Positions 3,541 to 64,000 of a stretch of DNA of 64,000 bases are shown here, piece by piece. The position numbers and the translations under genes were made by a program. Location of the stretch: positions 192,001 through 256,000 of the IMG/VR virus record IMGVR_UViG_3300018080_000099. One strand, 5' to 3'. The notes beneath the pieces are model-generated. The model ran no database searches. It saw nothing but the letters and a program-made list of their open reading frames with translations, and was not told the origin of the DNA. Every line of letters starts with the position of its first letter. Positions within the stretch are counted from its first letter, which is position 1. This DNA comes from a virus.

Positions 3541-3858
3541 ATGTCTTTTAACGATTACTTAAACAAGCGTCTGAATGAAGGAGTCGAGGAGTTTGAGAAC
3601 ATCGACCCTGCCGTGATTAACAAAGCCTTTGATAAGCGCGGACTATCTTCGGACGAAAAGGAAAATCAGGCCAACAGCATTGAGTATGACGATAGAGGTT
3701 TGGAAGTCGTTGTCTCATTTACATCGAAGGCTTATGGTGGAGAGTTCCCAGAGAACAACAAAGAAGTCCTCGATGCTATTACCAAAGAGATTGGAGCTAA
3801 TGAATGGTTCTACCGCGGGGATAATCCTTGGGTAGTCACATTCAGTTTTGAGGACTAA
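3541..3858 (+). CDS. small protein, MxFxEYL N-terminal family
   Basis: 105 aa, begins MSFNDYLNKRLNE. Conserved ggagaacacATG initiation context. Confidence 0.5.
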   Translation: MSFNDYLNKRLNEGVEEFENIDPAVINKAFDKRGLSSDEKENQANSIEYDDRGLEVVVSFTSKAYGGEFPENNKEVLDAITKEIGANEWFYRGDNPWVVTFSFED

Positions 3859-3867
3859 GGAGAACAT

Positions 3868-4275
3868 ATGTCGTTTCGAGATTTTCTGAAAGAGCAAGAG
3901 GAAAGCAATGTCGGATTCATAACCGACATTGAGAAGGACACTGTTGAGAATGAGAACTACAGAGAAGTTCTTTTCACAGGAGAGCAACTACAGCTTGTTA
4001 TTATGGCACTGAAATCCGGTGAAGAAATCGGCGAGGAAGTCCATGAAGGCATTGACCAGTTCTTTAGAGTTGATGAAGGTTCAGGAAAGGTTGTCATGGA
4101 TGGCAACGAAAGCGAGATTAAAGATGGTTCAGCTTTCATCATCCCCGGTGGTACAAAGCATAATGTGGTTGCCGGAGAAGGTGGACTGAAGCTTTACACG
4201 ATATATGCTCCGCCGGAACATCCGGACGGAACCATTCAGAAATCCAAAGAGGAAGGAGAAGAAGATGGACTTTAA
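3868..4275 (+). CDS. cupin-domain protein, MxFxEYL N-terminal family
   Basis: 135 aa, begins MSFRDFLKEQEE. C-terminal cupin-like block FIIPGGTKHNVVAGEGGLKLYTIY. Confidence 0.5.
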   Translation: MSFRDFLKEQEESNVGFITDIEKDTVENENYREVLFTGEQLQLVIMALKSGEEIGEEVHEGIDQFFRVDEGSGKVVMDGNESEIKDGSAFIIPGGTKHNVVAGEGGLKLYTIYAPPEHPDGTIQKSKEEGEEDGL

Positions 4276-4564
4276 CGAATACCTTACCGAATCTTTGAAG
4301 TCAATGACGTTTGGCGAAATGCCGGACTTCGAAGAATTCAAAGCCGCCTTTGAGAAAGAAGTACCCGGTGCCACATATTCTATTGAAGCTGGTCCAGTTG
4401 CGAAGGGCAAAATCAAAGAGGTTGAAGGCGAATATGATGTGAAGGCATTGTATGACTTGGTAGGAAAGCTCAAAGACGACTGGGAAGAAGATGAAGAAGG
4501 CGAAGATTCAGGAGCAAGAATCGCCGGTGACATCATGGGAACCCTTGGCTTTGAGTGGATTTAA
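4265..4564 (+). CDS. small acidic protein, MxFxEYL N-terminal family
   Basis: Start moved to the in-frame ATG at 4265 (MDFNEYLTESLKS). Overlaps the upstream stop. Confidence 0.45.
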   Translation: MDFNEYLTESLKSMTFGEMPDFEEFKAAFEKEVPGATYSIEAGPVAKGKIKEVEGEYDVKALYDLVGKLKDDWEEDEEGEDSGARIAGDIMGTLGFEWI

Positions 4565-4669
4565 GCATGATGGAAGAATACGAGTACGAACAATGGAAGC
4601 CCTTGAAGTATCCGGGCATCTATAAGCCAGTTTGGCCACGCTTCGATAAACCAAAAAAAGAGGAAGTAG

Positions 4670-5629
4670 ATGGAGACCTATTACTATCCAAGGACGACTA
4701 AGGGGATTATTGTAGCTTTGTCAGATGTTTTCAACCAGATGGTTGTTTACAAGTACGACCAAGGCTCAACATCCGCTGGTTATGGAGCATCGGCACAGGA
4801 AATAACGGTGCCGCTGACTTTTGGTCCTGTCGAGAAAGAGCACCAGCAAAGAATTGAGGACCACGAATACATTGCCAGTGCTACTGACCCGAACGGATAT
4901 AAACAAGTAGAAGCATACGGACAGAGATACTATCTGTATCTTCCACGTATGGCACTTGTTCTTAACGGAATTGCTTACAATGCCGAAAGAGCATATGGAG
5001 TCAACGAGTGGAGAGAATGGTTTGCTGAAACCACAGAAATGAGCGGAGGCAATGTTGAGGAAGTTCTAAGAGATTATCAACCGACACCTTGGGACTTTAA
5101 CTTCACGCTTTACATCATGACGGATTCGATGGATTACTTCTCTCAAATTTTGGAAAACATTCTGCCGTACTTCAACCCAGCATTACAACTGAGAGTGAAG
5201 GAGTTTTCGTTCCTCAATATTGAGAGGAACTTAAAGACAACTATCAATGGTGTGGTGCCTGAATTCCTGTCACCTGAGATTTCAGAAGATGAAAGAAGGT
5301 ATGTCAATGGAACTATCGACATTACCGTTCAGGGTTACATGTATCGACCATTCGAGTACAGCAAGGTTATCAAGAGCATTCACAGCAAGTACTTCGTTGT
5401 GGACTCTTCCAACGTATCCGGAACATCGGCACTGGCGGCTGGAGAAGAACCAGCAAGCACATATGTCATTTCTGCCGATTACTACGATACTTCTGCTGTC
5501 GAGATTACATCCGCCGGTACCTCAGCAATACCAACGAGCGCAATACCACAGGCATACTCGTTCAGTGGAACATACGATGACGATGTTAAGAACTTTGTTT
5601 ACTTTACAAGTGCAACTAATATAACGTAA
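4670..5629 (+). CDS. hypothetical head/neck-module protein (possibly gp14-like)
   Basis: 319 aa ORF with RBS agaggaag. Located between neck-like and terminase genes. Assignment rests on size and position only. Confidence 0.35.
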   Translation: METYYYPRTTKGIIVALSDVFNQMVVYKYDQGSTSAGYGASAQEITVPLTFGPVEKEHQQRIEDHEYIASATDPNGYKQVEAYGQRYYLYLPRMALVLNGIAYNAERAYGVNEWREWFAETTEMSGGNVEEVLRDYQPTPWDFNFTLYIMTDSMDYFSQILENILPYFNPALQLRVKEFSFLNIERNLKTTINGVVPEFLSPEISEDERRYVNGTIDITVQGYMYRPFEYSKVIKSIHSKYFVVDSSNVSGTSALAAGEEPASTYVISADYYDTSAVEITSAGTSAIPTSAIPQAYSFSGTYDDDVKNFVYFTSATNIT

Positions 5630-5636
5630 GGAGTTT

Positions 5637-6173
5637 ATGATGGAAGGATTTGACGGATTGAGCAGCGCATTTAATGTTGAAAATGAAGAAGAGTTTGTCC
5701 ACGCTGTAGAAGAAGTACAACAGGACATGGAGATGATTGAGGCAAAGAAAAACGAGATAGCTCAGAAGATTAACTTCCCTGTCATGTTTGAGGACCAAGG
5801 ATTCATTCAAAGAGAATTGAAGTCTTTGATTATGAGTGCTCGTACAGTCATGACAAAGGTTGAACAGGACATTAAAATCGGATGTCCACCGAGACAGGTT
5901 GAAGTCTATGCCAAGCTGGTAGAGTCAATCGGAAAGCAATATACTTCACTGCTTGACCTTAACAAGACAGTTTTTGAAGCTGCTGTTGAAGCAAAGCAAG
6001 TGGATATAAATAACATAGGAAATAACAAGATTTCACTGACTTCGGAACAATTGCTGGACATGATAAATGGAGCAAAAGAGAATAGTCAGATGAATGCTAT
6101 TGATGCTGATTTTGAAGTAGAGGACGAACATCTTCCACAGAAAAGGGAAAGAAGGGAGAACCCCGATGCCTGA
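5637..6173 (+). CDS. terminase small subunit (T4 gp16-like)
   Basis: 178 aa. MMEGFDGL N-terminus and PPRQVEVYAKLVESIGKQ resemble T4 gp16 (MEGLD..., PRHMEVFATLMGQ). Directly upstream of the large terminase. Confidence 0.6.
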   Translation: MMEGFDGLSSAFNVENEEEFVHAVEEVQQDMEMIEAKKNEIAQKINFPVMFEDQGFIQRELKSLIMSARTVMTKVEQDIKIGCPPRQVEVYAKLVESIGKQYTSLLDLNKTVFEAAVEAKQVDINNIGNNKISLTSEQLLDMINGAKENSQMNAIDADFEVEDEHLPQKRERRENPDA

Positions 6174-6183: not shown

Positions 6184-6456
6184 ATGAGTTTCAACGAATA
6201 CTTAAAAGAAGCCTTCGAAGAAATTAGCTACGAAGGAGAACAATTGGAATATCCTGATATTGCTGAAATAATTGCTAATGATGGAGAATTACTCAAGCAA
6301 ATGGGTAGAGAGGGATTAAGCCTTGAAGATTTGGAGAATGACACAAGGAAGTTTTTCGACTTCATGGTTAAGCATCTTGAAGAAATGAAAAAGAAGTATG
6401 ATTTCGTAGCCAACCCCGAGGACTTAGAGGTTGATTGGCACTACGAGCAAAAATAA
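6184..6456 (+). CDS. small acidic protein, MxFxEYL N-terminal family, inserted between the terminase subunits
   Basis: 90 aa, begins MSFNEYLKEAFEE. RBS aggagaa. Confidence 0.5.
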   Translation: MSFNEYLKEAFEEISYEGEQLEYPDIAEIIANDGELLKQMGREGLSLEDLENDTRKFFDFMVKHLEEMKKKYDFVANPEDLEVDWHYEQK

Positions 6457-8072: not shown

Positions 8073-8216
8073 ATGGCATGGGCTAGAAGACCCGTAAAAC
8101 CTAAGGCTGAAAACGTAGTAAAAGTTGAAGAAGTAGTTGAAAAACCTCAGCCAGAAAAGAAACGAAGAACGAGAAAATCGACCAATAAGACAATCAATAA
8201 ATTGGGAGGTAACTAA
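8073..8216 (+). CDS. small basic protein (47 aa)
   Basis: MAWARRPVKPKAENVV...KRRTRKSTNK. Good RBS ggagg. Stop overlaps the sheath start (TAATG). Below the size cutoff of the ORF track. Confidence 0.3.
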   Translation: MAWARRPVKPKAENVVKVEEVVEKPQPEKKRRTRKSTNKTINKLGGN

Positions 8217-35240: not shown

Positions 35241-35624
35241 ATGGAGATTAAAGACTTACTTGAAGTGAAAGTTTTAGTAGATGACAAGGTTATAAAAGAG
35301 ACACTTAACCGAATTGGCATTGCCAATAAGAAAAAGAAAATACTCTATCCAAGTTGCTACTTAATTGAAGAAAATGGAAAGCATTATCTCGCGCACTTTA
35401 AGCAATTGTTCCTGTTGACAAGGGATAGCGCTTATAATGCAGTCTGTGAGGACGACATACTGAGAAGAAATGCAATCGCTTTCTGCCTGAAAAATTGGGG
35501 TTTAATTGAAGTAGAAGATGAAGTTATCGAGCCCCATAACAAATTTGTGTTCGTTTTGCCTCATACACAGAAGCAAGATTGGAAGATTTCGCATAAATTT
35601 AACTTCAGGACTATAAATAGTTAA
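35241..35624 (+). CDS. regA: translational repressor RegA
   Basis: ETLNRIGIANKKKKILYPSCYLIEENGKHYLAHFKQLF, RRNAIAFCLKNWGLIEVEDE and FVLPHTQKQDWKISHKFNF align along the full length with recalled T4 RegA. Confidence 0.85.
   Translation: MEIKDLLEVKVLVDDKVIKETLNRIGIANKKKKILYPSCYLIEENGKHYLAHFKQLFLLTRDSAYNAVCEDDILRRNAIAFCLKNWGLIEVEDEVIEPHNKFVFVLPHTQKQDWKISHKFNFRTINS
35612..35619 (+). promoter_or_regulatory. TATAAATA motif inside the 3' end of regA
   Basis: Exact motif about 25 nt upstream of the small acidic ORF at 35641. Confidence 0.25.
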
Positions 35625-35640: not shown

Positions 35641-35799
35641 ATGGAATATAAAGACAACTACTTAACTAACGTAGACGACCCAGAAAGTGAAGAAGAGTTG
35701 AACTTGTTTAATGAAGAGGACGATGACGAACCTAAAGAATTGGACTTCTATGATGAATCCTTCGTGCCTCCGCCTGAATTTTTCCCTGAGGAAGAATAG
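35641..35799 (+). CDS. small acidic protein (52 aa)
   Basis: MEYKDNYLTN...EEDDDEP. RBS gggag. Below the ORF-track cutoff. Coordinates verified by manual translation. Confidence 0.3.
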   Translation: MEYKDNYLTNVDDPESEEELNLFNEEDDDEPKELDFYDESFVPPPEFFPEEE

Positions 35800-35828: not shown

Positions 35829-37487
35829 ATGTTGGAATTTGCTAATTATCTTAAAGAGAGCTACAATGATGATGTCTCTAAGGCAGAGGAAATCATCAAG
35901 CAGAAGTGGGATAAGGTAGTTGCTATCATCAAGGAAGCATTTGATGACCAGTACGCTGACCGAAAGACCGCACTCCACAGAATTCAAAATGAATTCACAG
36001 ACCCAAAAATTGCCCCATCATCCATTGATGTCGATTTCTTGAAGGAGAATATCGACTATGTTATCAATAAGGTTAACTCCCTTGACGAGGGAGAAATCCG
36101 TATTGTTATCAACAACGATGTACAGAAGGGCGGCACTGCACCAAAGGTTCCTGCACTTTCCATTGCCGGTGACGGTATGGAAATGGAATGTAATGAGCCC
36201 GGTAAGAAAAAGAGAGGACGTCCTAAGAAGGTCGTTAAGGAAGCCGAGGAAGAGCCTGAAAAGACTGTTGCCATTACAGTAGATGATACTGTGGTTACGG
36301 TAGAACCTTCCGAAGAATCCGGCCTTGAGAAGAAGGAACACTCCTTTGAATCCGCATCACAAGCAAACAAATTCGCTGACTCTATGAAGGCATTCTTTCA
36401 GGAGCAGGGTTTTGAATTGACTGGTGATGAAGCAGAAGGTGGAGAGGAAGCAGAGGACGCCGCAGCTGAAGAAGAGCCAGCACCTGAGGAAGGTGGTGAG
36501 GAAGCTCCTGCTGAAGAAGAGCCTGCACCTGAGGAAGGTGGAGAGGAAGCCCCAGAGGGTGAAGAAGCCCCTGCCGAAGAAGAGCCTGCACCTGAAGGTG
36601 AAGAAGAAGAGTCTACTCCAGAAGAAAAGGAAGATTCCGAAGAGGAAGTTTCCATTAGCTGGGAAGATGTAGCAGACGTTGACTTGGAAGATGCCGAAGA
36701 AGAAGCTGAAGATGATGTTCCAATGGAGAACATGGACCTGAGCAAACTCGTTGGTAAGCTTGTAAAAGTTGAGAACAACTGGTTCAGCGTCAAGGAAGTA
36801 TCCGAGGACAATCAGCTTGTTTGTTTGAACAAGGAAGGAGAGGAATCTACTTTTGGAATTGATGACATTGCAGAAGCTGAATATGAAGCTGAAGAAGAAG
36901 GCGAGGACGTCGAAGAAGCCAAAGAAGAAGGCGAGGACGTCGAAGAAGCCTGTGCAGAAGAAGAAGCTGAGGACGTCGAAGAAGGCAAGGAAGAAGAAAA
37001 GGAAGATGTAGAAGAAGCCGCCGAAGAACCTGAGGACGTTGAAGAAGCCGCAGAAGAACCTGAGGATGTAGAAGAAGCTAAGGAAGAAGGCGAGGATGCT
37101 GAAGAAGAAGTGATTGAGTTCGAATCAGTCATGACAAAGTATGCTAACCTGTTCTTTGACACCGACCCTGACGATGAAGTCGTTGAGGAAGCAGATGACA
37201 AGGCTAACATCGGTGGACATTCCAACGCTTTGACTGGCAAGCCTTCGGCTCCACCTAAGAAGATGGAGAAAACCAATGCCGCTCCAAAGGCACCGAAGAA
37301 GCCGGGCCCAACAGGAAGCTACACTGCAAAGCCGGGTAAGCCACCTAAAAAGTCTGAAAAGGCTGGAACTGTTCCGAAGGCTCCGAAGAAGCCTGCCCCA
37401 ACGGGAAGCTTCACAAAGAACCCGAACAAGCCACCGAAAAAGACTGATGGCGTACCAGCTCCGGTGATTCCGTCTGAATACAAATAA
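35829..37487 (+). CDS. large acidic repeat protein with an N-terminal AT-hook and a basic PK-rich C-terminus, MxFxEYL-like N-terminus
   Basis: 552 aa, begins MLEFANYLKESYN. KKRGRPKK AT-hook. Long E-rich arrays (EEPAPEEGGEEAP and EEAKEEGEDVEEA units). C-terminus with repeated PKAPKKPGPTGS(Y/F)T. Confidence 0.55.
   Translation: MLEFANYLKESYNDDVSKAEEIIKQKWDKVVAIIKEAFDDQYADRKTALHRIQNEFTDPKIAPSSIDVDFLKENIDYVINKVNSLDEGEIRIVINNDVQKGGTAPKVPALSIAGDGMEMECNEPGKKKRGRPKKVVKEAEEEPEKTVAITVDDTVVTVEPSEESGLEKKEHSFESASQANKFADSMKAFFQEQGFELTGDEAEGGEEAEDAAAEEEPAPEEGGEEAPAEEEPAPEEGGEEAPEGEEAPAEEEPAPEGEEEESTPEEKEDSEEEVSISWEDVADVDLEDAEEEAEDDVPMENMDLSKLVGKLVKVENNWFSVKEVSEDNQLVCLNKEGEESTFGIDDIAEAEYEAEEEGEDVEEAKEEGEDVEEACAEEEAEDVEEGKEEEKEDVEEAAEEPEDVEEAAEEPEDVEEAKEEGEDAEEEVIEFESVMTKYANLFFDTDPDDEVVEEADDKANIGGHSNALTGKPSAPPKKMEKTNAAPKAPKKPGPTGSYTAKPGKPPKKSEKAGTVPKAPKKPAPTGSFTKNPNKPPKKTDGVPAPVIPSEYK
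36470..37450 (+). repeat. three distinct in-frame tandem repeat arrays inside the acidic protein gene
   Basis: About 45-nt units at 36470-36612, about 39-nt units at 36886-37107 and about 63-nt units at 37240-37450. Confidence 0.7.
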
Positions 37488-38263: not shown

Positions 38264-39463
38264 ATGGCATCGTTTGACAAGTTCTATTTTGATAAGCTTT
38301 CACTCTTTGAAGGAGGTAATGTTAAAGTGGGTGGAAATCTTGAATCAGCACAGAAGATACCGTTGGGTGAACTCTCCAGTGGACAATTCGAACAGTTCAA
38401 AGCTGAACTGGCAAACACACTCAAGGCATTCAACAAAGAATTCGAGAAGCAAACAGGAGAAGCTCTGTGGCCGAATTTGGATGCTTTGATTGAGAACGGC
38501 AAGCTGTTCTCAGGCTCTACAAGACTTCTGTTCACCAAACCATTGAAGGAACTCCAACAGCACAAGAAAACTGTGGGCGACATTGACTTGCAGTATCCGG
38601 ATGACAAGAGGGATGCTCTCAAAGAATTCCTGTCCAACGTAGAGGACCAACAGTTCGGTGATATGACGTTCTTTGGCATGGGCGGTAGGAGTCCAATCCA
38701 ATTCAACACCATATTCAAAACCACATCCCTCCCCGATGATATTACCAACATACAAGTAGACTTTGAACCCACATTCTGGGAGAACGGTGAGCCTACCGAA
38801 TTCTCCACATATGCTCATTACAGCTCATGGGAAGATGTCAAATCCAAAGTCAAGGGAGCATTCTCTAAGCTTCTGACAAGAGCCTTGGTGAGTAACAAGC
38901 AAAAACTTGGTGACATTGCCGTGGTGACTCCAACCGGAAAGATTTCCAAATCCGCCAAGTACGACAATCCCGGTATGCGTGGCTTCTCAGTTGACAAAGG
39001 CATGAGAGTCAAGTACGAACCTGTCACAGATGAAAAGGGCAATCAGAAAACTACCGAAGATGGAAAGCCAATGTACCGTGAGCTTCCAACGAAGGATTCC
39101 AATTACGAAAGAGACTTGGCTGATATTTTCGGATTCCTTTTTGACAAGACTCCGACTGAAGATGAAAAGCACCAGATGCATTCGTACATCGGCATCCTCA
39201 AAATCATGAAGAAGCATATGGATGAAGATACGGCAAAGTCCGTGTTTGATGACTTCATGAAGATAATCTGGGGTGACGCAGCTCAGGAAATTGAGCAGGG
39301 AGAATTTCAGAACGGTATAAATAATAATGACTTCGAAGTCAAGAAAGCCGCCTACGACCAGTTCATCATGGCATTCCCTAAGCTACAGATGTCGGATGAA
39401 GAGTTGAAGGCATACGTCACACCGTTCTACGACAAGCTCGCCAAGAGGAAGATGGCTAAATGA
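38264..39463 (+). CDS. hypothetical protein with a possible Pol-beta-type NTase motif, MxFxEYL-like N-terminus
   Basis: Start at the in-frame ATG 38264 (MASFDKFYFDKL), RBS aggagaa. FSGSTR...VGDIDLQY is loosely like hG[GS]...DhDh. Confidence 0.4.
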   Translation: MASFDKFYFDKLSLFEGGNVKVGGNLESAQKIPLGELSSGQFEQFKAELANTLKAFNKEFEKQTGEALWPNLDALIENGKLFSGSTRLLFTKPLKELQQHKKTVGDIDLQYPDDKRDALKEFLSNVEDQQFGDMTFFGMGGRSPIQFNTIFKTTSLPDDITNIQVDFEPTFWENGEPTEFSTYAHYSSWEDVKSKVKGAFSKLLTRALVSNKQKLGDIAVVTPTGKISKSAKYDNPGMRGFSVDKGMRVKYEPVTDEKGNQKTTEDGKPMYRELPTKDSNYERDLADIFGFLFDKTPTEDEKHQMHSYIGILKIMKKHMDEDTAKSVFDDFMKIIWGDAAQEIEQGEFQNGINNNDFEVKKAAYDQFIMAFPKLQMSDEELKAYVTPFYDKLAKRKMAK

Positions 39464-40092
39464 TTCATTTCGAGAAGCATTATTTTGCAGAGAGAAGAGG
39501 GAGCAAGTTTCGTTCCCTCATCGTCGTTGATATACAACCGTTGTATGAAGAAGGAATTAAAAGAAGCTTTGACCTAGAAGATTTTGGAGACTTTCTTTCA
39601 GAGATTAAGGAAGGTGTTCTGTTTTTCTATAATGGTCCTGAAACAATTGGTTCGGACGATTCCCCTGAAGTCATACAACAATGGCTCATGGAACACAATC
39701 CTAAGCTCGAAGAGTTTGACTGGGAACAGGTAGAATGGTATGACAAAGGATATTCATTTTTTCGAGATTGGACTGATGCCGGTGTATCGAACAACGGAAT
39801 GGTTAAGGCTTTGCGTCACATGTATACCAATAGGAAGTACGATAGCCGTGAAGTCTCTGTGGAAGAGTGGGAAAAGGTTTTGCCACAGTCGGACTTCAAT
39901 GCAATCAAAGATGCTTTGGAAGATGAAGGGCTTACTATTTGGACACCTGACATAAGCATTTCTGAACTCCGAGAGTGGAGTGGTTCCCTTCTTTGTGGTG
40001 GTGGAATGAATGAGTGCTTAAAAGAAATTCAAATCCTGATGAATGCTTTCAATATCAAATACAGTCTTGTTGACAAGTTCGTTTATTACTAA
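39460..40092 (+). CDS. isochorismatase/nicotinamidase-like hydrolase (tentative)
   Basis: SLIVVDIQPLYEEG and LLCGGGMNEC resemble the Asp/Cys catalytic blocks of the isochorismatase family. Begins MIHFEKHYF. Confidence 0.3.
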   Translation: MIHFEKHYFAERRGSKFRSLIVVDIQPLYEEGIKRSFDLEDFGDFLSEIKEGVLFFYNGPETIGSDDSPEVIQQWLMEHNPKLEEFDWEQVEWYDKGYSFFRDWTDAGVSNNGMVKALRHMYTNRKYDSREVSVEEWEKVLPQSDFNAIKDALEDEGLTIWTPDISISELREWSGSLLCGGGMNECLKEIQILMNAFNIKYSLVDKFVYY

Positions 40093-40101: not shown

Positions 40102-41091
40102 ATGGACTTCATAAACCATTACTGTACTGAAGTTGCCCCTTCCAAAAGAAAGGGCATTCAGCATATTTACGGTGGGAACGAAGGGCAGTATTCCATGAAA
40201 CCGAATGATTTCTTGGAGCTTATCAGATATATTCGAGACTCAGGTGAGGGGAGATTATCACAGGCTAACTCCAGTATTTCTGAAAAGGCTGATGGATTCA
40301 GACTCATTTTCGGTTTGGACCCACAAAATCGCTTCTTTATTGAGTCCGCTCGTTCAGGTCCAGTTCACGATGAGGGACGGTTCAGAGACTTCACAATCGC
40401 AAAAAAGGGCGAATCTGACCCAATCAGCGAAGGCTACGAAGATATTCTGATAAAGCTGAAGAACGATAAGAGGTTACAGGATTTCCTTCAAACTATAAAT
40501 ACTCCTAGTGGTATTAAGATACAAACCGAGGCATTTTACCTTCCTTTAGGAAAGTATAGCGAATTAGATGACTCGATAGTTCGGTTTGTCGCCACATGGT
40601 ACAAGAAAGAAAGATTAGGAAAATGGGCCACCTTTGTGGTAATAAACGTAATTGACGGAAAGGGGAGACCATTTCCACACGACTTTGTGCAAAATGTCAA
40701 GAAAGGGCTTAAAGAATTAAGCACCGATGATATAAAGTTTGAGACAAATGAAGCTCCAGATTTCAAGGAAGTGGATTTAAGTGACGAGATTGAAAAGGCA
40801 GAACAGCTTGTAAGCCAGTTGGAAAAGGAATACGGCCAAAAGCTTGAGGACATTGTACTGAATCCGAGCCGCAAGAAGGATGCGAGGGAGCAAAAGAAGC
40901 GTATCAAACAGGAGATGCTTAAGCTCCAGAAAGAATTTGCGAGTAGGATTTCAAGCCTTATTGGAAAGAAGGGCATGTTCGGAGATGAATACGAGGGATT
41001 GGTATTTGAGCTTGCCAACGGAATAATGTTCAAGGTCGTATCGGACAAATTCAAAGAAGCCAAGAAGGCTTACAATAAGGGAGAACTGTGA
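40102..41091 (+). CDS. putative ATP-dependent nucleic-acid ligase (K-x-D-G motif)
   Basis: SEKADGFRLIFG matches ligase motif I (KxDGxR; T4 DNA ligase active site is KADGAR). Begins MDFINHY. Confidence 0.4.
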   Translation: MDFINHYCTEVAPSKRKGIQHIYGGNEGQYSMKPNDFLELIRYIRDSGEGRLSQANSSISEKADGFRLIFGLDPQNRFFIESARSGPVHDEGRFRDFTIAKKGESDPISEGYEDILIKLKNDKRLQDFLQTINTPSGIKIQTEAFYLPLGKYSELDDSIVRFVATWYKKERLGKWATFVVINVIDGKGRPFPHDFVQNVKKGLKELSTDDIKFETNEAPDFKEVDLSDEIEKAEQLVSQLEKEYGQKLEDIVLNPSRKKDAREQKKRIKQEMLKLQKEFASRISSLIGKKGMFGDEYEGLVFELANGIMFKVVSDKFKEAKKAYNKGEL

Positions 41092-41486
41092 TGGGTTTCA
41101 GAGAGTATTACTTAAGTGAATCGGTAGAAGGCCACGAAAAACTTCAGGACGTAATGAGGGGTATCGTTAATCAAGACGTGAATATTATTCAGCAGTGGAG
41201 TTACCTGAGTCCGCAAGGATGGGAAAATGCCGGTGTTGAGAAAGATGCTGGTATTATCAACTTTGGTTTGAGGCCTTCAGGCTATCAGGGAGTCTTGATA
41301 TTTGATGATGTTGGTAAGCTTGCCAAAGCTGAAATAGGAAGTAGTCCAAGATTACAAAGGGCTTTGGAGGATAATGCACAGGATTTGGAAGCTGCATTTG
41401 CGGAAGTTAAGCTTCGTCCACAGGACATACCGGCATTCGATAGAGCAGTCGATGCCATTATTTCACAGCTCGGAGCACAGCTTTAA
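41088..41486 (+). CDS. small protein, MxFxEYL N-terminal family
   Basis: 132 aa, begins MGFREYYLSESVE. ATGA overlap with the upstream gene. Confidence 0.45.
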   Translation: MMGFREYYLSESVEGHEKLQDVMRGIVNQDVNIIQQWSYLSPQGWENAGVEKDAGIINFGLRPSGYQGVLIFDDVGKLAKAEIGSSPRLQRALEDNAQDLEAAFAEVKLRPQDIPAFDRAVDAIISQLGAQL

Positions 41487-41495: not shown

Positions 41496-42149
41496 ATGAG
41501 CTTCAAAGAATATTATTTACAAGAGGCTGAAGAAAAGGGTGCCATAGTTGATGGTGAATTCCGCAAAGGCGTTCCGACTCCTTCAGAAAAGTTCAACAAG
41601 CCCGTCATCGGAACTATCACAGCTAAGAACATCATTGCCGACGGCACAACCGATTACGATGTCATTGAAAAGGTTAAGGGCAATACTATGGATATTTGGG
41701 TTACGAATCAGTGGTATACTTATCGCCCTGACAAACAAGTCGTTCAGTTTGTTCCTGATGAATTTGTAGAAGATTTCCGAGAGGTCGATGCCCAGACTGA
41801 AGATAATGATTTGGAAGCAAAGGCGGCGAAAATTCCGGCTTCTCAAAAGGGTTCAAAGAACATTCCGAGTTGGGTTTCGACAAAGATGAAGAGCCTTTCG
41901 GATACTGATGCTACCAAAGAGTGGCTACTCATGGCTAAGAATACAATGGGACAGGCTCCTCTTGGATTAATCCTTCAGAACTTGGCGGATGGTGCCGAAG
42001 CAACTGCTAAAGAGTTTGAAACTGAGGATGAGCCAGACGAGAACATTGCCAAGCAATACAGGGCAGTCGCAAATGAGATTAGAGGAATCATTCAGAAGGT
42101 TAAACCAGAAATGGAATGGGAACCGGAATTCGGAGGAACTGGAGAATGA
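41496..42149 (+). CDS. hypothetical protein, MxFxEYL N-terminal family
   Basis: 217 aa, begins MSFKEYYLQEAEE. ggagagaatATG context. Confidence 0.45.
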   Translation: MSFKEYYLQEAEEKGAIVDGEFRKGVPTPSEKFNKPVIGTITAKNIIADGTTDYDVIEKVKGNTMDIWVTNQWYTYRPDKQVVQFVPDEFVEDFREVDAQTEDNDLEAKAAKIPASQKGSKNIPSWVSTKMKSLSDTDATKEWLLMAKNTMGQAPLGLILQNLADGAEATAKEFETEDEPDENIAKQYRAVANEIRGIIQKVKPEMEWEPEFGGTGE

Positions 42150-42691
42150 AGGCTTACAACAAATACTTAAAGAACAGAGTCCTTCGTGAATATGGTGAAT
42201 TGGAGTATGAAGTCGATGAAGTTGAGTTGACTTTTAAGGACAATGCGGTTTGGGTAGGTGATACAAAAATAGCTGACATTAAGTGGGTGCCGGGTGAAAA
42301 GCCATATGCGATTAAGGTCGAGGAAGTCAACTTCACAGATGAGTTTGATTTCGCTAAAGTCGAGCAGGAAGAAAAGGAAGGTTTGGCCGAATCCATTCAG
42401 GAATTTTTTGATGAACCGCCTGAGGAAGGCAAAGAATATAAGTTTGAACATTTCATTACTGTTGAGGCTGAGGCGACATCAGTAGACCCCGGCCAACAGG
42501 GTGGAAGGACTGACCCATCATGGGACCCATATGTTGAAGAGTTTGAAGCTAAATGGGGTGGTGTAGATATTACGGAACATCTTCCTGATAGAGATAAAGA
42601 CAAAATTGCTGAAAAACTCATGGACGAAATAGAGCAAAATGCTCGTGACGCTGAAGCAGAAGCCAAGTATAGTCGATACGAGGACTATTAA
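42146..42691 (+). CDS. hypothetical acidic protein
   Basis: Start at ATG 42146 (MKAYNKYLKN), RBS ggagg. ATGA overlap with the upstream stop. Confidence 0.4.
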   Translation: MKAYNKYLKNRVLREYGELEYEVDEVELTFKDNAVWVGDTKIADIKWVPGEKPYAIKVEEVNFTDEFDFAKVEQEEKEGLAESIQEFFDEPPEEGKEYKFEHFITVEAEATSVDPGQQGGRTDPSWDPYVEEFEAKWGGVDITEHLPDRDKDKIAEKLMDEIEQNARDAEAEAKYSRYEDY

Positions 42692-43095
42692 TGAACTTTC
42701 AAGAACACTACTACGGAAAGGATGCTAAGGAATTTGTCAAACTCTTTGAGGGTTACTTGACAGAATACCTTGACGGTGAGTCCGAACCTACCTCCGAGTT
42801 AGACCCGCAGTTCATTTCAAGGTTATGTGACTACCTTGAGAAGTGTTTCCCGTCATACGGAAACTTCAATACTGCTATTAGTACGGAACTTCGCAATGTC
42901 ATGAAGGGTGATAACAACCAGATTCAGAAGATGAAGAAGAAGATTCATGACGCTATAAATAAAGCAAAAGCTAAATTTCTTGATACGGTACAAAACAAAT
43001 GCGAAAAAATACAGGTGGTTCCTAAAAAACCAAAGGAGCCTAAAGTTCCCGAACCAGCAGGAGAAGAACAACCGTATGGCCCTAATGAGCTTTGA
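42691..43095 (+). CDS. small protein, MxFxEYY N-terminal family
   Basis: 134 aa, begins MNFQEHYYGKD. Confidence 0.45.
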   Translation: MNFQEHYYGKDAKEFVKLFEGYLTEYLDGESEPTSELDPQFISRLCDYLEKCFPSYGNFNTAISTELRNVMKGDNNQIQKMKKKIHDAINKAKAKFLDTVQNKCEKIQVVPKKPKEPKVPEPAGEEQPYGPNEL

Positions 43096-43630
43096 GAGTT
43101 ATTATAGTCACACAGAACCAGCTCAAATCGAAATCCAGCATCTTGACACCATTGAGGAAGATAAGCTGTTCGTGACTGTCGGCGGAGGAATTGCAGTTGG
43201 CAAATCCTACGTGGCTGAGAAGTTTATCCATCTTCCCGTTATTGATGTTGACGATTGTGTTGTCGAAGTAAACGGTGGTACATACGATAGAAGCTGTCTT
43301 GCAGAAGGCAGGAAGTTGTTCAAACAAAGACTTGAGGATGCATTTGAAAGCTCAGCATCCTTCTGTCACATGGGAACAAACGCAAACCTTAACGGTACGA
43401 AGAAAAGATTATATTGCGCTAAAGAGAACGGTTTTACTTCCGTTCTCGTTTTGGTTGAGACTCCCATTGAAAAAGCACTTGCTCAATCCAAACAGCGAGT
43501 GGATGAAGGTGTTCGTAACGAAATCTCCATAGAGAGAATCTACCAATCCATGCTTGATTCCATGCGAGTCTTTCACCAACTAAATAAGGATAACACATTA
43601 GTAGATTTTTATGTTCATGTAAAGAATTAA
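43085..43630 (+). CDS. P-loop nucleoside/polynucleotide kinase-like protein
   Basis: Start at in-frame ATG 43085 (MSFESYYSHTE). Walker A VTVGGGIAVGKSYVAEKF. 181 aa, the size of a kinase domain. Confidence 0.5.
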   Translation: MSFESYYSHTEPAQIEIQHLDTIEEDKLFVTVGGGIAVGKSYVAEKFIHLPVIDVDDCVVEVNGGTYDRSCLAEGRKLFKQRLEDAFESSASFCHMGTNANLNGTKKRLYCAKENGFTSVLVLVETPIEKALAQSKQRVDEGVRNEISIERIYQSMLDSMRVFHQLNKDNTLVDFYVHVKN

Positions 43631-43680: not shown

Positions 43681-43688
43681 TATAAATA
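43681..43688 (+). promoter_or_regulatory. TATAAATA motif upstream of the HNH gene
   Basis: Exact motif 19 nt upstream of the 43707 ATG. Confidence 0.25.
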
Positions 43689-46593: not shown

Positions 46594-46610
46594 GTATGAA
46601 AGAGAATAAA

Positions 46611-56464: not shown

Positions 56465-56466
56465 AA

Positions 56467-59958: not shown

Positions 59959-60499
59959 CTTCCACATCCCTGAAAGTGGTTTGATACTGGACATGGGAGG
60001 GTTTTGTGGGCAGTGGACTCAAACGGCATTCAATCACTTTGGGTGTCGTGTTTATGTTATGGAGCCCATTAAGGAGTTCTATGAGAAAATCGTCCAGCGA
60101 TTCCAAGGGAACGACAAGATTGTTCCTTTGAACTTCGGATTGGCAGGGGAGAATACTTCAACCACCATTTATAAGAGTTTGGATGGCTCAAGCATCTTTA
60201 CAAAGAATGGTCCCTCAGAAGTCATTGAGTTGAGAAACGCCAGTGAGTTCATGGAGGAAATGGAGATAAGCTCAGTAGATTTGGCAAATGTCAACGTGGA
60301 GGGTTCGGAGTATGACATTCTCCCAAACCTGATGGAGTCGGGGAAGATTGAAGTTTTCAAGAACATTCAGATACAGTTCCACAAAAACCGAGAAGGTTAT
60401 GTGGAGAAGCGAAAAGCAATACAGGAATCATTAAGTCAGACGCACACACAGATTTGGAACTACGAAATGGCTTGGGAGTGTTGGAGGAGAAATGTCTAA
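59930..60499 (+). CDS. FkbM-family methyltransferase
   Basis: ILDMGGFCGQWT...VYVMEP resembles the FkbM domain. Alternative start at 59939. Confidence 0.5.
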   Translation: MREMERRRLDFHIPESGLILDMGGFCGQWTQTAFNHFGCRVYVMEPIKEFYEKIVQRFQGNDKIVPLNFGLAGENTSTTIYKSLDGSSIFTKNGPSEVIELRNASEFMEEMEISSVDLANVNVEGSEYDILPNLMESGKIEVFKNIQIQFHKNREGYVEKRKAIQESLSQTHTQIWNYEMAWECWRRNV

Positions 60500-61415
60500 G
60501 ATATTGATTACGGGTGCTAAAGGGCTTGTCGGTTCAGCCATTCCAATAAGCATGGATAATGTTTTGCTTGTTCCTAAAAGGTCGGATATGGATTTGATGA
60601 ATGAGCAAGATACTTGGTCATACATTTCATATCACAAGCCGGACTCTGTTATTCATTGTGCCGCTAAGGTTGGTGGGCTTGCAGGGAATATGAATCATAT
60701 GGGAGAGTTCTTTTATGAGAACATGCTAATGACAACTCAGCTCATAGAACTTTGTCGGCAGGCAGGAGTCAAGAAGGTTCTGTCCTTTCTGTCAACCTGT
60801 ATCTTTCCGGACAAAGCTGAATATCCATTGACTGAGGACCAAATACTTCTTGGGCCTCCGCATGAATCCAACTACGGTTACGCATATGCCAAACGCATGA
60901 CGTACATCCAGAGTTGTGCCTATCGTCAACAATATGGAATGAATTGTATCTGTGTTGTGCCGACAAACATCTACGGCCCCAGAGACAACTATGATTTGGA
61001 TAATGGACATGTGCTACCATCTCTCATACACAAATGCTACTTAGCTAAGCAGAACAAGACTGAGTTTGTGGTGTGGGGAAGTGGTGCGCCTTTAAGGGAG
61101 TTCATTTTCTCTGAGGATATTGGTAAGTTAGTATTGAAACTATTGGAGGATTACAATGAGGAAGAACCTATCATCCTTACAACGGGTGATGAAATTCCTA
61201 TCGGGGTGGTTGCTGGACTTGTGGCAAAGGCAATGGGCTACAAAGGCAAAATCAAATTTGATACGAGCAAGCCAGATGGACAATTCCGCAAGCCGTCATC
61301 AAATGCTAAGCTCATGGCTTTATATCCTGATTTCAAGTTCACACCAATAGAGATTGGTATTCAGCGCGCAGTTGATTGGTTTTGCCACAATTATCCAAAC
61401 GTGAGGGGAGCATGA
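60492..61415 (+). CDS. fcl: GDP-L-fucose synthase (GDP-4-keto-6-deoxymannose 3,5-epimerase/4-reductase)
   Basis: ILITGAKGLVGSAI, AAKVGG, YAYAKR, VPTNIYGPRDN, VVWGSGAPLREF and GYKGKIKFDTSKPDG align with recalled E. coli Fcl. Confidence 0.8.
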   Translation: MSKILITGAKGLVGSAIPISMDNVLLVPKRSDMDLMNEQDTWSYISYHKPDSVIHCAAKVGGLAGNMNHMGEFFYENMLMTTQLIELCRQAGVKKVLSFLSTCIFPDKAEYPLTEDQILLGPPHESNYGYAYAKRMTYIQSCAYRQQYGMNCICVVPTNIYGPRDNYDLDNGHVLPSLIHKCYLAKQNKTEFVVWGSGAPLREFIFSEDIGKLVLKLLEDYNEEEPIILTTGDEIPIGVVAGLVAKAMGYKGKIKFDTSKPDGQFRKPSSNAKLMALYPDFKFTPIEIGIQRAVDWFCHNYPNVRGA

Positions 61416-61852
61416 GCCAGTATATTCCTCAGGATAAGTACGACTACATTTTAACGCACATGCCTATTGCTTGTGTGGATGTTTGCATTGTGTCAGAGAA
61501 GGGCATCCTTCTTGTCAAAAGAAACACTGAGCCTGCGAAAGGAACTTGGTGGGTGCCCGGCGGAAGAGTTCACAAAGGAGAAACGTTGAGGGACTGTGCA
61601 TATCGTAAGTGTTTGGAAGAAGTCAACTTACACTGTTCCATTGGACCGATAGTTCATACTGATGAAACGGTATTTGATACAGGGCCATCGGGCATCCCGA
61701 TTCATTCAATCAATGTATGCTTTTTAGCAATCCCTCATACTGCTGATGTCAAGTTAGATGACTACAGTGATAGTCATGCATGGGTACCTCATATAGCTGA
61801 CAATTTCCATCCGTACGTTCGGAAGTGTTTTGAAGGTTGCGGATTCAAATAA
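61412..61852 (+). CDS. Nudix hydrolase, GDP-mannose mannosyl hydrolase-like
   Basis: Nudix box GGRVHKGETLRDCAYRKCLEEVNL. Adjacent to fcl as in gmd-fcl-gmm clusters. Start at in-frame ATG 61412. Confidence 0.6.
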   Translation: MSQYIPQDKYDYILTHMPIACVDVCIVSEKGILLVKRNTEPAKGTWWVPGGRVHKGETLRDCAYRKCLEEVNLHCSIGPIVHTDETVFDTGPSGIPIHSINVCFLAIPHTADVKLDDYSDSHAWVPHIADNFHPYVRKCFEGCGFK

Positions 61853-61863: not shown

Positions 61864-61871
61864 TATAAATA
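61864..61871 (+). promoter_or_regulatory. TATAAATA late-promoter motif upstream of the tmRNA
   Basis: aactataaataatta, nearly identical to the context at 51-65. Confidence 0.35.
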
Positions 61872-61898: not shown

Positions 61899-62258
61899 GG
61901 GGCTGTACTTGGCTTTCGACTGGGTATGTTTGTTGGATGACTGCACGCCGAGGTTGGTCAGTTGGCCTCGTAAAAAGCTGACTAAATTATAAGCGCAGAA
62001 GATTACGCTTACGCACAGGCTGCTTAATCAGTCTGCCTGAAACCCTCAAATGCCATCGGTGAGGCGAGTAAGGACCAATTTAGATGGTGTAGGGAACCTG
62101 AGGCATCATAAGGGGACCGAAGTAAATGATGCAACATATCGCCAGTATGTACTCGTTTACTGGACTTACTGGCGATTATTTGACAGTAAACTAAGCGTGT
62201 GAATGAAGTCCCAACGGGTGTACGCAACACGGCGGTTCGATTCCGCCCAGCTCCACCA
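61899..62258 (+). ncRNA. ssrA: tmRNA (SsrA)
   Basis: 5' GGGGCUG pairs with 3' CAGCUCCACCA. T-arm GGCGGUUCGAUUCCGCC. GGCCUCGUAAAAAGC block as in E. coli tmRNA. Resume codon GCA at 61995 opens a tag ORF GCA GAA GAU UAC GCU UAC GCA CAG GCU GCU UAA (AEDYAYAQAA*). Confidence 0.8.
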
Positions 62259-62448: not shown

Positions 62449-62456
62449 TATAAATA
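62449..62456 (+). promoter_or_regulatory. TATAAATA motif
   Basis: Exact motif 15 nt upstream of the RBS of the 62472 gene. Confidence 0.25.
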
Positions 62457-62471
62457 ATTTTGGAGAAAGGA

Positions 62472-62987
62472 ATGAAATTTGAAGAGTACTACCTAAAAGA
62501 AGAAGATATGCCACAGTACCAGCTGTTTTGCGACATGGACGGTGTTCTCACAGACTGGGAACAAGCTTTCCTGAATCTAGGTGTAACCAAGTTGACAGGA
62601 GAGAAGTTCGAAGAAAAGAACGGCAAAGCAGCTCTTTGGGCTGTCATTACCAAACACGGCAAGCTAGACTTCTGGGAAAACATGCCGTGGACAGAAGATG
62701 GTAAGAAACTGTGGAACTATATCAAGAAGCACAAACCTACCATACTAACGACCCCCGCGAGAAATAAATACAGTAGGGATGGCAAGAAGCTTTGGATTGC
62801 CAGAGAACTTGGCAAAGATGTTGAGTACATCTTTGAGAAGGATAAGTTCAAGCACGCCAATCCACAAGCCATTCTTATTGATGATTTTGATACGAAGATA
62901 AATGACTGGGTGAACCATGACGGTGTTGGCATCCTTCATGTGACTGCCGATGACACAATCAAGCAGTTAAAGGAGTTTGGATTCTAA
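62472..62987 (+). CDS. HAD-family 5'(3')-deoxyribonucleotidase-like protein, MxFxEYYL N-terminal family
   Basis: Begins MKFEEYYLKEED. FCDMDGVLTDW is HAD motif I. RBS ggagaaagg. Confidence 0.5.
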   Translation: MKFEEYYLKEEDMPQYQLFCDMDGVLTDWEQAFLNLGVTKLTGEKFEEKNGKAALWAVITKHGKLDFWENMPWTEDGKKLWNYIKKHKPTILTTPARNKYSRDGKKLWIARELGKDVEYIFEKDKFKHANPQAILIDDFDTKINDWVNHDGVGILHVTADDTIKQLKEFGF

Positions 62988-63175
62988 TGAAGGGAACCGA
63001 CCCAGTACACCGAAATAACGCCTTCACCGAGTATTACTTTACTGATGATGATACTACGGGTACAAAGAAGGAAAAGACCTTCATCGGTCGTAAACACGAA
63101 GATTTGGGCTGGGATGTTTCCCATAAGCTCAATAAAGAAATAAAGAAGGAATATGGAATAGAGGAGCGACCATGA
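62987..63175 (+). CDS. small protein with an internal FTEYYF motif
   Basis: 62 aa ORF, TAATG overlap. NAFTEYYFTDDD at residues 12-23. Confidence 0.3.
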   Translation: MKGTDPVHRNNAFTEYYFTDDDTTGTKKEKTFIGRKHEDLGWDVSHKLNKEIKKEYGIEERP

Positions 63176-63465
63176 AGTTCGAAGAACACTATAACGCCAT
63201 AGACTTAGATAAGCTCATAACCGAAGATGATGTTGATGAATTAACTCCTGAGAAAAAGTCTTTCCTTGAGCTAGGAATGGAGATTGCCAAGAAACTTGGT
63301 ATCACCTTCAATGGCGTATGGGATGCCGAAGGACTTCCGGGAATGGAGGACTTGTTAGTTTTCACAGACCCGAAATCCCACGGCACATTTACAGCCAAGA
63401 GCGAGCCTGAAGCACGTAAGAAGTTTAAGGATATGATAACAAGCTTCGCATCGGCAGCGGCTTAA
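63172..63465 (+). CDS. small protein, MxFxE(H/Y)Y N-terminal family
   Basis: 97 aa, begins MKFEEHYNAIDLDKLITE. Confidence 0.45.
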   Translation: MKFEEHYNAIDLDKLITEDDVDELTPEKKSFLELGMEIAKKLGITFNGVWDAEGLPGMEDLLVFTDPKSHGTFTAKSEPEARKKFKDMITSFASAAA

Positions 63466-63471
63466 GGAGTT

Positions 63472-63693
63472 GTGATGAAATTCGAAGAGTATTATTTTAT
63501 GGAAGATAAAGATGTTAAGGAAGGTCTTTTGTCGGCCTTCTTAAAACCAAGACGAGACAAACAACCAGCTAACCCTTCACTGTGGCAAACACTTATGCAG
63601 AGAGCCAAAAAGCAATTTGGTAAGCGCGACAGTGATACAAAGTTCAACTGGGTATACAGAGAATATATGAAGCAGGGAGGGAAGTTCGCGTGA
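63472..63693 (+). CDS. small protein, MxFxEYY N-terminal family
   Basis: 73 aa, begins MMKFEEYYFMEDKD. Confidence 0.4.
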   Translation: MMKFEEYYFMEDKDVKEGLLSAFLKPRRDKQPANPSLWQTLMQRAKKQFGKRDSDTKFNWVYREYMKQGGKFA

Positions 63694-64000
63694 TAAGCTT
63701 CGATGAACATTACTATGACGAAATTGTAGTTGATATTCCACTTAACTTTGACCTAATGCGTTTTAACGAGGAAGGACAAATAGAGATGGACATTGAGGAA
63801 AAATACGTTCCTGAACTCATCAAGTGTGGATTCTTGAAGAAGTCTGTCAAGGAAGCTACACTAGGTAAAATGAAGAAAGGAATCGTCAAGGTTACGGACC
63901 CGGAGACTGGGAAGGAAACAGACTTCGAGGCGTCCGTAGGTAATGCTAAAATCGGAGGCGAGACAATCGTTATCAATATGTCAACGGCTAAGCAGTGCAT
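63690..64000 (+). CDS. small protein (3'-partial at window end), FDEHYY N-terminus
   Basis: GTG start overlapping the upstream stop (GTGA). VISFDEHYYDEIVV. Runs off the window. Confidence 0.3.
   Translation, partial: MISFDEHYYDEIVVDIPLNFDLMRFNEEGQIEMDIEEKYVPELIKCGFLKKSVKEATLGKMKKGIVKVTDPETGKETDFEASVGNAKIGGETIVINMSTAKQC

Follow-up and report, generated by a model that had tools for sequence, protein, structure and literature searches.

The stretch of DNA considered here, the 64-kb ‘window’ (positions 192,001 to 256,000 of IMG/VR record IMGVR_UViG_3300018080_000099), encodes a short shared peptide at the very start of 16 of its 75 curated genes, whose products are otherwise unrelated. On balance, we read this decapeptide as an expanded capsid-targeting/propeptide tag; this lineage's version of the capsid-targeting sequence (CTS) of phage T4. 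By analogy with T4, the tagged proteins would probably be packaged in the virion, and might enter the host together with the DNA. We favour this reading because of the position of the motif, its conservation at the level of the peptide, the identity of the conserved residues and the appended, disordered nature of the tag, together with the small members found in the head module, a variable locus among relatives, late-promoter motifs, and the recurrence of ADP-ribosyltransferase (ART) cargo.

A short N-terminal peptide on unrelated proteins

All plausible genes of the window lie on the + strand, and we curated 75 of them for motif counts. Sixteen start with M-x(1-2)-[FY]-x-x-[YFH]-[YLFC], placing the first aromatic at residue 3 or 4; from the internal frequency of [FY]-x-x-[YFH]-[YLFC] just 0.24 such genes would be expected (binomial P 8e-25). 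A differently worded pattern, [FYW]-x-[ED]-[FYWH] at residue 3 or 4, is found in 10 of the 75 genes where 0.28 would be expected (P 4e-13). A search of all six frames for the strict core, F-x-[ED]-[YH]-[YLF], gives 12 copies in the plus frames and one in the minus frames; ten of the plus-strand copies sit at residue 3 or 4 of open reading frames (ORFs) preceded by a Shine-Dalgarno (SD) site, with one internal to the ORF at 62987 and one out of frame. Three further ORFs hold weak (35641, 42146) or internal (62987) matches. The members are as follows, an arrow marking the putative cleavage point and TATAAATA being the T4 late-promoter consensus:

3541..3858, +: tagged ORF, 105 amino acids (aa), MSFNDYLNKRLNE; acidic, without family match
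3868..4275, +: tagged cupin, 135 aa, MSFRDFLKE↓Q; Cupin_2 over residues 45-112, phrog_13536 from residue 16
4265..4564, +: tagged ORF, 99 aa, MDFNEYLTE↓S; acidic
6184..6456, +: tagged ORF, 90 aa, MSFNEYLKE↓A; between the terminase genes
35641..35799, +: weak member, 52 aa, MEYKDNYLTN; 42% D+E
35829..37487, +: tagged protein, 552 aa, MLEFANYLKE↓S; AT-hook KKRGRPKK at residues 127-135 (by eye)
38264..39463, +: tagged protein, 399 aa, MASFDKFYFDKLSLFE; phrog_19290 from residue 15, weak PBECR1 match
39460..40092, +: tagged protein, 210 aa, MIHFEKHYFAE; TATAAATA at 39316
40102..41091, +: tagged protein, 329 aa, MDFINHYCTE; ligase/nucleotidyltransferase-like motifs by eye only
41091..41486, +: tagged protein, 131 aa, MGFREYYLSE↓S
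41496..42149, +: tagged protein, 217 aa, MSFKEYYLQE↓A
42146..42691, +: weak member, 181 aa, MKAYNKYLKN; weak paralogue of 41496
42691..43095, +: tagged protein, 134 aa, MNFQEHYYGKD
43085..43630 (start maybe 43076), +: tagged P-loop kinase-like protein, 181 aa, MSFESYY; TATAAATA at 42954
62472..62987, +: tagged HAD 5'(3')-deoxyribonucleotidase, 171 aa, MKFEEYYLKE↓ED
62987..63175, +: ORF of 62 aa with AFTEYYF at residue 13; tag not N-terminal
63172..63465, +: tagged protein, 97 aa, MKFEEHYNAIDLDKLITE↓D
63475..63693, +: tagged basic protein, 72 aa, MKFEEYYFME
63690..64000, +: 5' part of a tagged 486-aa gene, (V)ISFDEHYYDE; runs into the flank

An earlier, sequence-only reading of this DNA had listed these members, and every start that it gave exists and bears the peptide. 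Two of them, 41088 and 63472 (GTG), are better placed one codon later at ATG (41091 and 63475), which restores the M-x-F register; the others we have kept, with 43076 an alternative to 43085. Its ranking of 35641 and 42146 as weaker, and of 62987 as internal, is borne out. The ORF at 62987 (NNAFTEYYFTDDD) has no in-frame start codon just 5' of its motif and may be a decayed or N-terminally extended member.

The codons of the tag are variable: TTT and TTC are used 8:9, whilst GAA alternates with GAG and TAT with TAC. In an alignment spanning -45 to +30 around the Phe codon, information is confined to the SD, the ATG and non-synonymous positions, ruling out an RNA or DNA element; since synonymous codons are free to vary, selection acts on the peptide rather than on RNA, as the sequence-only reading had proposed from the same pattern of varying codons. 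The behaviour of these positions also bears on the idea that the motif enhances translation initiation or early elongation, through A/T-rich early codons or a favourable nascent peptide. Short N-terminal peptides, SKIK for example, can raise expression; the codons here are A/T-rich and all members have strong SD sites. We nevertheless regard this as very unlikely, as synonymous positions are free but residues F3, Y6, L7 and E9 are fixed, the most highly expressed structural genes are without the motif, and orthologues in related phages have different leaders or none.

Beyond the tag, an all-versus-all BLASTP of the proteins minus their first 14 residues returns a single pair (41496/42146, E 0.003), and Pfam and PHROG assignments differ from one tagged protein to another, in agreement with the claim that the downstream sequences are unrelated. 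A shared domain or paralogy is ruled out by the trimmed BLASTP taken with domain boundaries that fall downstream of the tag. Common descent of a folded domain, or a DNA recombination cassette at gene 5' ends, might be suspected from that weak paralogous pair and from the tandem arrangement of small tagged ORFs, which suggests local duplication. The similarity, however, ends at about residue 14; the tag falls outside the domain models and is disordered in the structure prediction described below, and nucleotide identity over the tag and upstream is low save for SD and ATG. Such an origin is largely refuted and, in our estimation, highly improbable; even when translation effects, shared ancestry and recombination cassettes are pooled, they stay improbable.

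The functional labels given earlier fared unevenly. Those of cupin and HAD 5'(3')-nucleotidase hold, that of P-loop kinase holds weakly, and the AT-hook of 35829 stands by eye (KKRGRPKK). The ‘ligase-like’ label of 40102 comes down to motifs picked out by eye (KADGFR, EGLVF and FKVVSDKFK, resembling ligase/nucleotidyltransferase motifs I, IV and V) with neither hidden Markov model (HMM) nor PDB match, and a ‘DNA mimic’ is not established. Sequence searches of Pfam, PHROGs, NCBIfam and PDB gave no match for 3541, 4265, 6184, 35829, 39460, 40102, 41091, 41496, 42146 or 42691; no membrane-spanning segments were found in the tagged proteins. Acidic repeats (E/A/P and EDVEEA) take up ~250 residues of the 35829 protein, whose C-terminal repeat (KAPKKPxPTGS) is K/P-rich and basic; the protein is acidic overall despite its AT-hook and basic tail, a makeup that would suit a DNA-associated internal protein.

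The tag is an appended extension

Domain models of the tagged proteins begin at residues 13-29, past the tag (phrog_13536 at 16, with Cupin_2 at 45; phrog_19290 at 15, the deoxyribonucleotidase PHROG at 14, AAA_33 at 13 and ART-PolyVal at 29). Among homologues of the HAD nucleotidase (n = 120), many are tag-less proteins of 154-158 aa that start ~8 residues before the DMDGV motif, with others bearing leaders of 10-14 residues that differ by lineage. An AlphaFold model of the 62472 HAD protein (41 sequences) has a predicted local distance difference test (pLDDT) score >95 over the domain, with residues 1-14 as coil at pLDDT 50-70.

Isolate homologues give the same picture. Those of 38264 are found in Campylobacter, Vibrio and Xanthomonas phages and those of the cupin in Bacillus and Listeria phages, and all of these alignments begin past the tag. 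The 38264 homologue of Campylobacter phage CP220 begins MKLSELMFILEGGN, tag-less, where the window protein has MASFDKFYFDKLSLFEGGN; in the 41-kb CP220 region no common leader was found among its genes. The peptide is thus an N-terminal extension appended outside the folded domains, and the possibility raised earlier, that the motif forms part of a folded domain common to all members, is contradicted by both the family models and AlphaFold.

A T4-type head-maturation module

Megablast of the window found no match, and its capsid protein is at most ~35% identical to those of the nearest isolates, the gp23 of cyanomyoviruses (50,697 phage records). This distance, the head and tail genes recognised by PHROG and the upstream Portal_T4 and Peptidase_S77 matches identify the window, by sequence, as that of an uncultured, distant T4-like myovirus that branches deeply and encodes all of the T4 head-maturation proteins. 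The source contig is ~264 kb, and we read 10 kb of flank on either side of the window. Across the upstream flank (L001, whose base 9078 is base 1 of the window) and the window itself, profile matches follow the T4 gene order, Portal_T4, Peptidase_S77, T4_CASP scaffold and Gp23, the flank containing Portal_T4, a 62-aa ORF and the Peptidase_S77 gene (gp21 family). A gp21-like prohead protease, which the sequence-only reading had suggested looking for upstream, is therefore found immediately upstream, beside a T4-type scaffold and portal.

1..25, +: 3' end of the gp21-type prohead protease gene (Peptidase_S77, 217 aa), mostly upstream (L001 8449-9102)
93..890, +: gp22-type scaffold/core protein, T4_CASP; untagged; TATAAATA at 55-62 upstream
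924..2279, +: gp23-type major capsid protein (PHROG); predicted maturation site V-L-G-E50↓A51
2755..3531, +: gp13-type neck protein; left border of the variable tagged-ORF locus
4670..5629, +: gp15-type tail sheath stabiliser; right border of the same locus
5637-6173, +: small terminase subunit (PHROG)
6467-8029, +: large terminase subunit (PHROG)
8216-10126, +: tail sheath (PHROG)
10144-10695, +: tail tube (PHROG)

Three tagged members occupy the neck locus and one (6184) the terminase locus, as had been noted before: tagged ORFs lie between neck genes and between the terminase subunits. A single-sequence AlphaFold model of 6184 is all-helical and of low confidence (pLDDT 56); too poor for a fold search. 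In 29 IMG/VR loci whose capsid protein is 61-89% identical to that of the window, hereafter the relatives, the interval from the gp13-like gene to gp15 holds 0-6 tandem tagged small ORFs. Elsewhere in the module, relatives L002, L004, L010, L014 and L027 have large Cys-rich ORFs (478-558 aa) directly after the capsid gene, and L004, L008 and L029 have additional ORFs, function unassigned, at the terminase position.

The predicted capsid maturation site, [LIF]-x-E↓[AST], is kept in 13 relatives, including variants with F at P3, and tag variants ending F-x-E would therefore fit the specificity of the protease.

Positional agreement with the T4 capsid-targeting sequence

The T4 CTS given in the sequence-only reading, MKTYQEFIAE, is correct on the T4 sequence. 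In the T4 genome, IPII and IPIII (IP, internal protein) begin MKTYQEFIAE↓A, IPI begins MKTFKEFTS...ITE↓A, gp24 MAKINELLRE↓S and Alt MELITE↓LFDE. Work on the IPIII leader (Mullaney and Black, reviewed) assigns targeting mainly to residues 4 and 7 and processing to residues 8 and 10, with Asp at position 10 stopping processing but not targeting (PMC9026906). The best-conserved positions of the window and its clade, F, Y, L and E, have the same spacing as IPIII Y4, F7, I8 and E10.

To describe the clade we assembled 73 distinct N-termini from window and relatives, picked by M1, [FY]3 and [YFH]6 alone; over these, the two aromatics at i and i+3, themselves the selected positions, are the best-conserved columns. 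At the unselected positions, residue 7 is L or Y in 61 of the 73 and residue 9 is E in 34, with [LIV]-x-E present at 7-9 or 8-10 in 43 of 73, compared with 35 of 945 other candidate starts. The clade consensus is M-S-F-K-E-Y-L-K-E followed by an acidic stretch, and the relatives' tags start MSFKEYLKE, MSFKKYLKE, MSFKQYLTE, MSFKEFIRE, MGFKEYLKE and similar. Within the window, 7 of 16 members have [LIV]-x-E at 7-9 or 8-10 (hence the earlier statement that almost every member has L-x-E at 7-9 was too strong), a count that rises to 9 when F-x-E is added and to 13 when the site may fall anywhere within 20 residues. A cleavage site can lie further in, since T4 IPI is cut at ITE-19.

As a control, we searched all 168,903 bp of T4 for M-x(1-3)-hydrophobic-x-[ED]-hydrophobic-[LIVF]-x-E at SD-preceded ORF starts, and recovered gp24, Alt, IPII, IPIII, gene 61.1 (MKTFKEFIKE) and an ORF of 49 aa; searching with the aromatic core instead gave IPI, IPII, IPIII, 61.1, rI.-1 and 46.2. 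Tag-like starts thus number 4-6 in the 169 kb of T4 versus 12-16 in the 64 kb of the window. We note in passing that T4 gp61.1 (NC_000866 18966-19130, minus strand), a 54-aa hypothetical protein, has a CTS-like leader with a canonical I-K-E, and that rI.-1 (MKFSDF) and 46.2 (MTFDEF) share the aromatic core.

Both systems place an N-terminal leader of 10-19 residues on unrelated proteins, with aromatics at i and i+3 (Y4/F7 in T4, F3/Y6 here) that are followed, in fewer than half of the window members, by [LI]-x-E; IPI (MKTFKEF) has the identical F-K-E-aromatic core, and each phage encodes a protease of the gp21 family together with a scaffold of gp22 type. Relatives differ in their bearer genes, much as T-even phages do in their IP genes, which share the CTS only (PMC3012670, PMC9026906). 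The layout of gp24 and Alt (hydrophobic-x-E-hydrophobic-hydrophobic-x-E), whose leaders are cut by gp21, is likewise matched, although theirs are aliphatic where those here are aromatic. The sequences themselves differ, MSFKEYLKE or MKFEEYYLKE here against MKTYQEFIAE, with the aromatic register usually one residue nearer the Met; and the 64 kb studied here contain at least 16 bearers, where the entire T4 genome has 3-4.

Tagged proteins beyond the window and other leader types

The tagged array that begins at 62472 is tightly packed and continues past the window end into the downstream flank, where an AAA_33 kinase (VRFEEHY, GTG start) and a PolyA_pol/CCA-type enzyme are both tagged, as is an ART-PolyVal ADP-ribosyltransferase (MRFDEYYLTE; profile match E 2.9e-25). 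The PolyA_pol/CCA-type gene (L185 14873-17265) is interrupted by a GIY-YIG homing-endonuclease gene. Amongst 34 tagged proteins of the relatives, Pfam finds ART-PolyVal and DUF5661 three times each, PolyA_pol twice, and a cupin, a 2H/Acb1-like phosphoesterase and an HD domain once each; ART-PolyVal is also tagged (MSFTTHYFKE) in a distant 218-kb marine contig.

Other leaders appear in place of the F-type tag. HAD orthologues 55-63% identical to the window protein bear MGI[IL]EQIGL[YF]E, and a second leader type, M-[GSA]-I-L-[DENQ]-x-[IL]..., ending hydrophobic-x-E, is seen at L185 17608-19624 (~7.6-9.6 kb past the window end); examples are MAILNELDKLVPE, MGILDNLDRFMVE, MGILESIGKLMGE and MGIIEQIGLYE, and it is also found on the HAD nucleotidase orthologues P0002-P0027 of related phages. 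A 17-kb JGI contig (L063) has MIKL[TIV][DE][IL]L[KQ]E on 5 of 22 genes, a Zeta-type kinase and the HAD enzyme among them, and a 170-kb T4-like contig (L190, with Portal_T4 and S77) has MK[LI]TKKQL[QR]EI[IV]RE on small ORFs between portal and protease; the L190 portal gene contains an intein. A scan of IMG/VR for MIKLxDLLKE gave mostly one copy per locus among the matches listed, clear sharing within a genome being seen in L063 and L190; the string is in part a generic helical N-terminus, and MIKLKDLLKE by itself is a common protein start. All leader types share the layout hydrophobic-x-acidic-hydrophobic-hydrophobic-x-E, which suggests that they are lineage-specific versions of one device. The address types that we propose are:

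F-type, MSFKEYLKE (window)
I-type, MGILxxIGLYE
MIKLxDLLKE type
MKLTKKQLQEIIRE type

The small ORFs of L190 occupy the place of T4 genes 67/68, and together with 3541, 4265 and 6184, which are small, acidic and helical like T4 gp67/gp68, they lend themselves to a variant explanation: the tag would target the prohead core, but most bearers would be auxiliary scaffold or core proteins, degraded and expelled rather than injected. This would leave unexplained the tags on folded enzymes (cupin, HAD, kinase, ART), for which no scaffold role is expected, and we consider it distinctly unlikely.

Late-promoter motifs and neighbouring genes

The window has 18 copies of the consensus TATAAATA, 17 of which lie on the coding strand, where 2.25 would be expected over both strands; it is found 14-70 nt 5' of scaffold, sheath, tube and fibre genes and 123-171 nt upstream of 6184, 39460 and 43085. 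Three copies stand out with respect to the tagged genes:

6005..6012, +: TATAAATA, 171 nt upstream of tagged 6184
35612..35619, +: TATAAATA, 21 nt upstream of 35641, heading the 35.6-43.6 kb tagged cluster
62449..62456, +: TATAAATA, 15 nt upstream of 62472, heading the tagged array that crosses the window end

Such placement, which untagged genes share, would fit the tagged proteins being made during head assembly.

Between the second and third of these positions lies an ~18-kb sugar-biosynthesis cluster (43707-61852, +; TATAAATA at 43681), apparently for a nonulosonic acid, in which no gene is tagged. It contains NeuB (56789-57625), a CMP-sugar-type cytidylyltransferase (53288-53953), a radical SAM/SPASM protein (53916-54875), an epimerase (60492-61415) and a NUDIX protein (61412-61852), as well as methyltransferases, a cupin and a faint sulfotransferase match. 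It is followed by a tmRNA gene (61899-62258, +; Rfam RF00023, 121 bits) with TATAAATA 27 nt upstream at 61864 and an ARAGORN tag peptide of AEDYAYAQAA.

DISCUSSION

A candidate address for the prohead

From the observations set out above we infer docking, cleavage, packaging and injection of the tagged proteins, which in our model would proceed as follows. The peptide would serve as a short, flexible N-terminal address whose two aromatics (F3 and Y/H/F6, or 4 and 7 in the longer form) dock the protein on the gp22-type scaffolding core during prohead assembly; the gp21-type prohead protease would then cut at the [LIV(F)]-x-E that follows the aromatics, freeing the mature protein within the head. 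The cargo, comprising small acidic head/neck proteins, the 552-aa AT-hook protein, cupin, kinases and nucleotidase, with the ADP-ribosyltransferase past the window, would be carried in the virion, and at least some of it would enter the next host with the DNA, as do T4 IPI* and Alt.

Several points weigh against this model. Fifteen of 18 tagged proteins have an isoelectric point (pI) below 6, most cargo falling at pI 4-5.8 and only 63475 being basic, so that they depart from the small, highly basic, DNA-associated class of T4 IPs and, unlike it, include enzymes; the objection is softened by the T4 core proteins gp67, gp68 and gp22, which are also acidic. With at least 25 tagged genes in ~74 kb the set is far above the 4-6 of T4. 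The canonical [LIV]-x-E is missing in 9 of 16 window members, and 3 of 16 are without a site within 20 residues. The whole window appears to be late; as the sugar cluster and the tmRNA gene, as well as untagged neighbours, also have TATAAATA, proximity to a late promoter is not specific to tagged genes. Several cargo types (nucleotidase, kinases, CCA-type nucleotidyltransferase and a relative's Acb1-like phosphoesterase) have T4 counterparts that are not packaged. Lastly, packaging in this lineage is deduced by comparison, across a distance at which the nearest isolates share ~35% capsid identity.

Taken together, some of these points could instead indicate an address or recognition tag unrelated to the capsid: one for timed degradation, for assembly of a cytoplasmic enzyme complex (RNA repair, nucleotide metabolism), or for a phage chaperone or modifying enzyme. 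Many of the tagged soluble enzymes (HAD nucleotidase, AAA_33/Zeta-type kinases, PolyA_pol, cREC_REC and the 2H/Acb1-like protein) have cytoplasmic, unpackaged counterparts in T4, and the acidity of the cargo, the unusual size of the tagged set and the missing cleavage site in over half of the window members would all be accommodated. On the other side, there is no known degron or assembly tag of such form, the conserved positions match the targeting and processing determinants of the T4 CTS, the same pattern applied to T4 picks almost exclusively prohead-processed proteins, tagged small ORFs fall within the head/neck and terminase modules, and late-promoter motifs stand directly 5' of tagged genes. 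We therefore hold a non-capsid role to be rather unlikely and retain the capsid-targeting model.

Comparison with other delivery and encapsulation systems

The tagged ART-PolyVal proteins recall T4 Alt, a packaged and injected ADP-ribosyltransferase; unlike Alt, which is of the R-S-E clade, ART-PolyVal belongs to a Tox-ART-HYD2-like clade (PMC5512222). ARTs of the polyvalent type are predicted to travel in the virion, and it was in proteins with predicted delivery alongside phage DNA that the ART-PolyVal and PBECR domains were first defined (PMC5512222). The ART-PolyVal proteins and weak PBECR1 match here are reminiscent of such polyvalent proteins and virion-delivered effectors (P1 DarA/DarB, the virion RNA polymerase of N4, MuF-fused toxins), a parallel that carries with it the idea that counter-defence proteins are made in advance and arrive with the DNA (PMC5512222). 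Here, however, the domains are separate small proteins, individually tagged, rather than parts of one giant fusion. In the giant phages phiKZ, 201phi2-1 and SPN3US, head-internal proteins are cut after Glu by a T4-related prohead protease, and their propeptides are thought to target proteins to the prohead; these propeptides, in contrast to our tag, are mostly >100 residues, have an A/S/G-x-E motif and lack a shared decapeptide (PMC5694885).

A further analogy, without sequence relationship to the tag, is offered by shells that are not DNA-filled. In encapsulins and microcompartments, short transferable amphipathic peptides (cargo-loading and encapsulation peptides, respectively) send unrelated enzymes into a protein shell. 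The encapsulin shell has the HK97-type fold; the tags of its cargo usually sit at the C-terminus, and no protease cleaves them off.

Novelty and implications

Proteins injected with phage DNA act before phage gene expression and decide survival against host defences; in T4 only a handful are known, found biochemically. The CTS has already been suggested as a route by which T4-like phages load diverse proteins (PMC9026906). Our literature search found no description of the motif reported here, and what appears to be new is a distinct tag sequence in a deep uncultured clade, the scale of its use, the stand-alone enzyme cargo and an apparent interchange of leaders on orthologues. The agreement of positions would corroborate the mutational map of T4 (aromatics for targeting, [LI]-x-E for processing) over a deep evolutionary distance.

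If the tag is a true CTS, it would provide a sequence rule that predicts the packaged or injected proteins of uncultured T4-like phages, and would point to an ancient T4 mechanism whose cargo has been expanded from about 4 genes to at least 25. The tagged ADP-ribosyltransferases, kinases, nucleotidase, cupin and AT-hook protein would become candidates for early counter-defence, and the tags themselves would add new short peptides to the T4 CTS, which is already in use for bringing foreign proteins into phage capsids. More tentatively, and somewhat short of an even chance, environmental T4-like phages may use lineage-specific, interchangeable N-terminal addresses to load dozens of stand-alone enzymes and counter-defence proteins, amongst them ADP-ribosyltransferases, RNA-repair-type kinases and nucleotidyltransferases, nucleotidases and Acb1-like phosphoesterases. 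In that case, the genome sequence of an uncultured phage would be enough to list the proteins that it injects, and the cargo set defined by the tag in the phage of this window would rank among the largest known in T4-like viruses.

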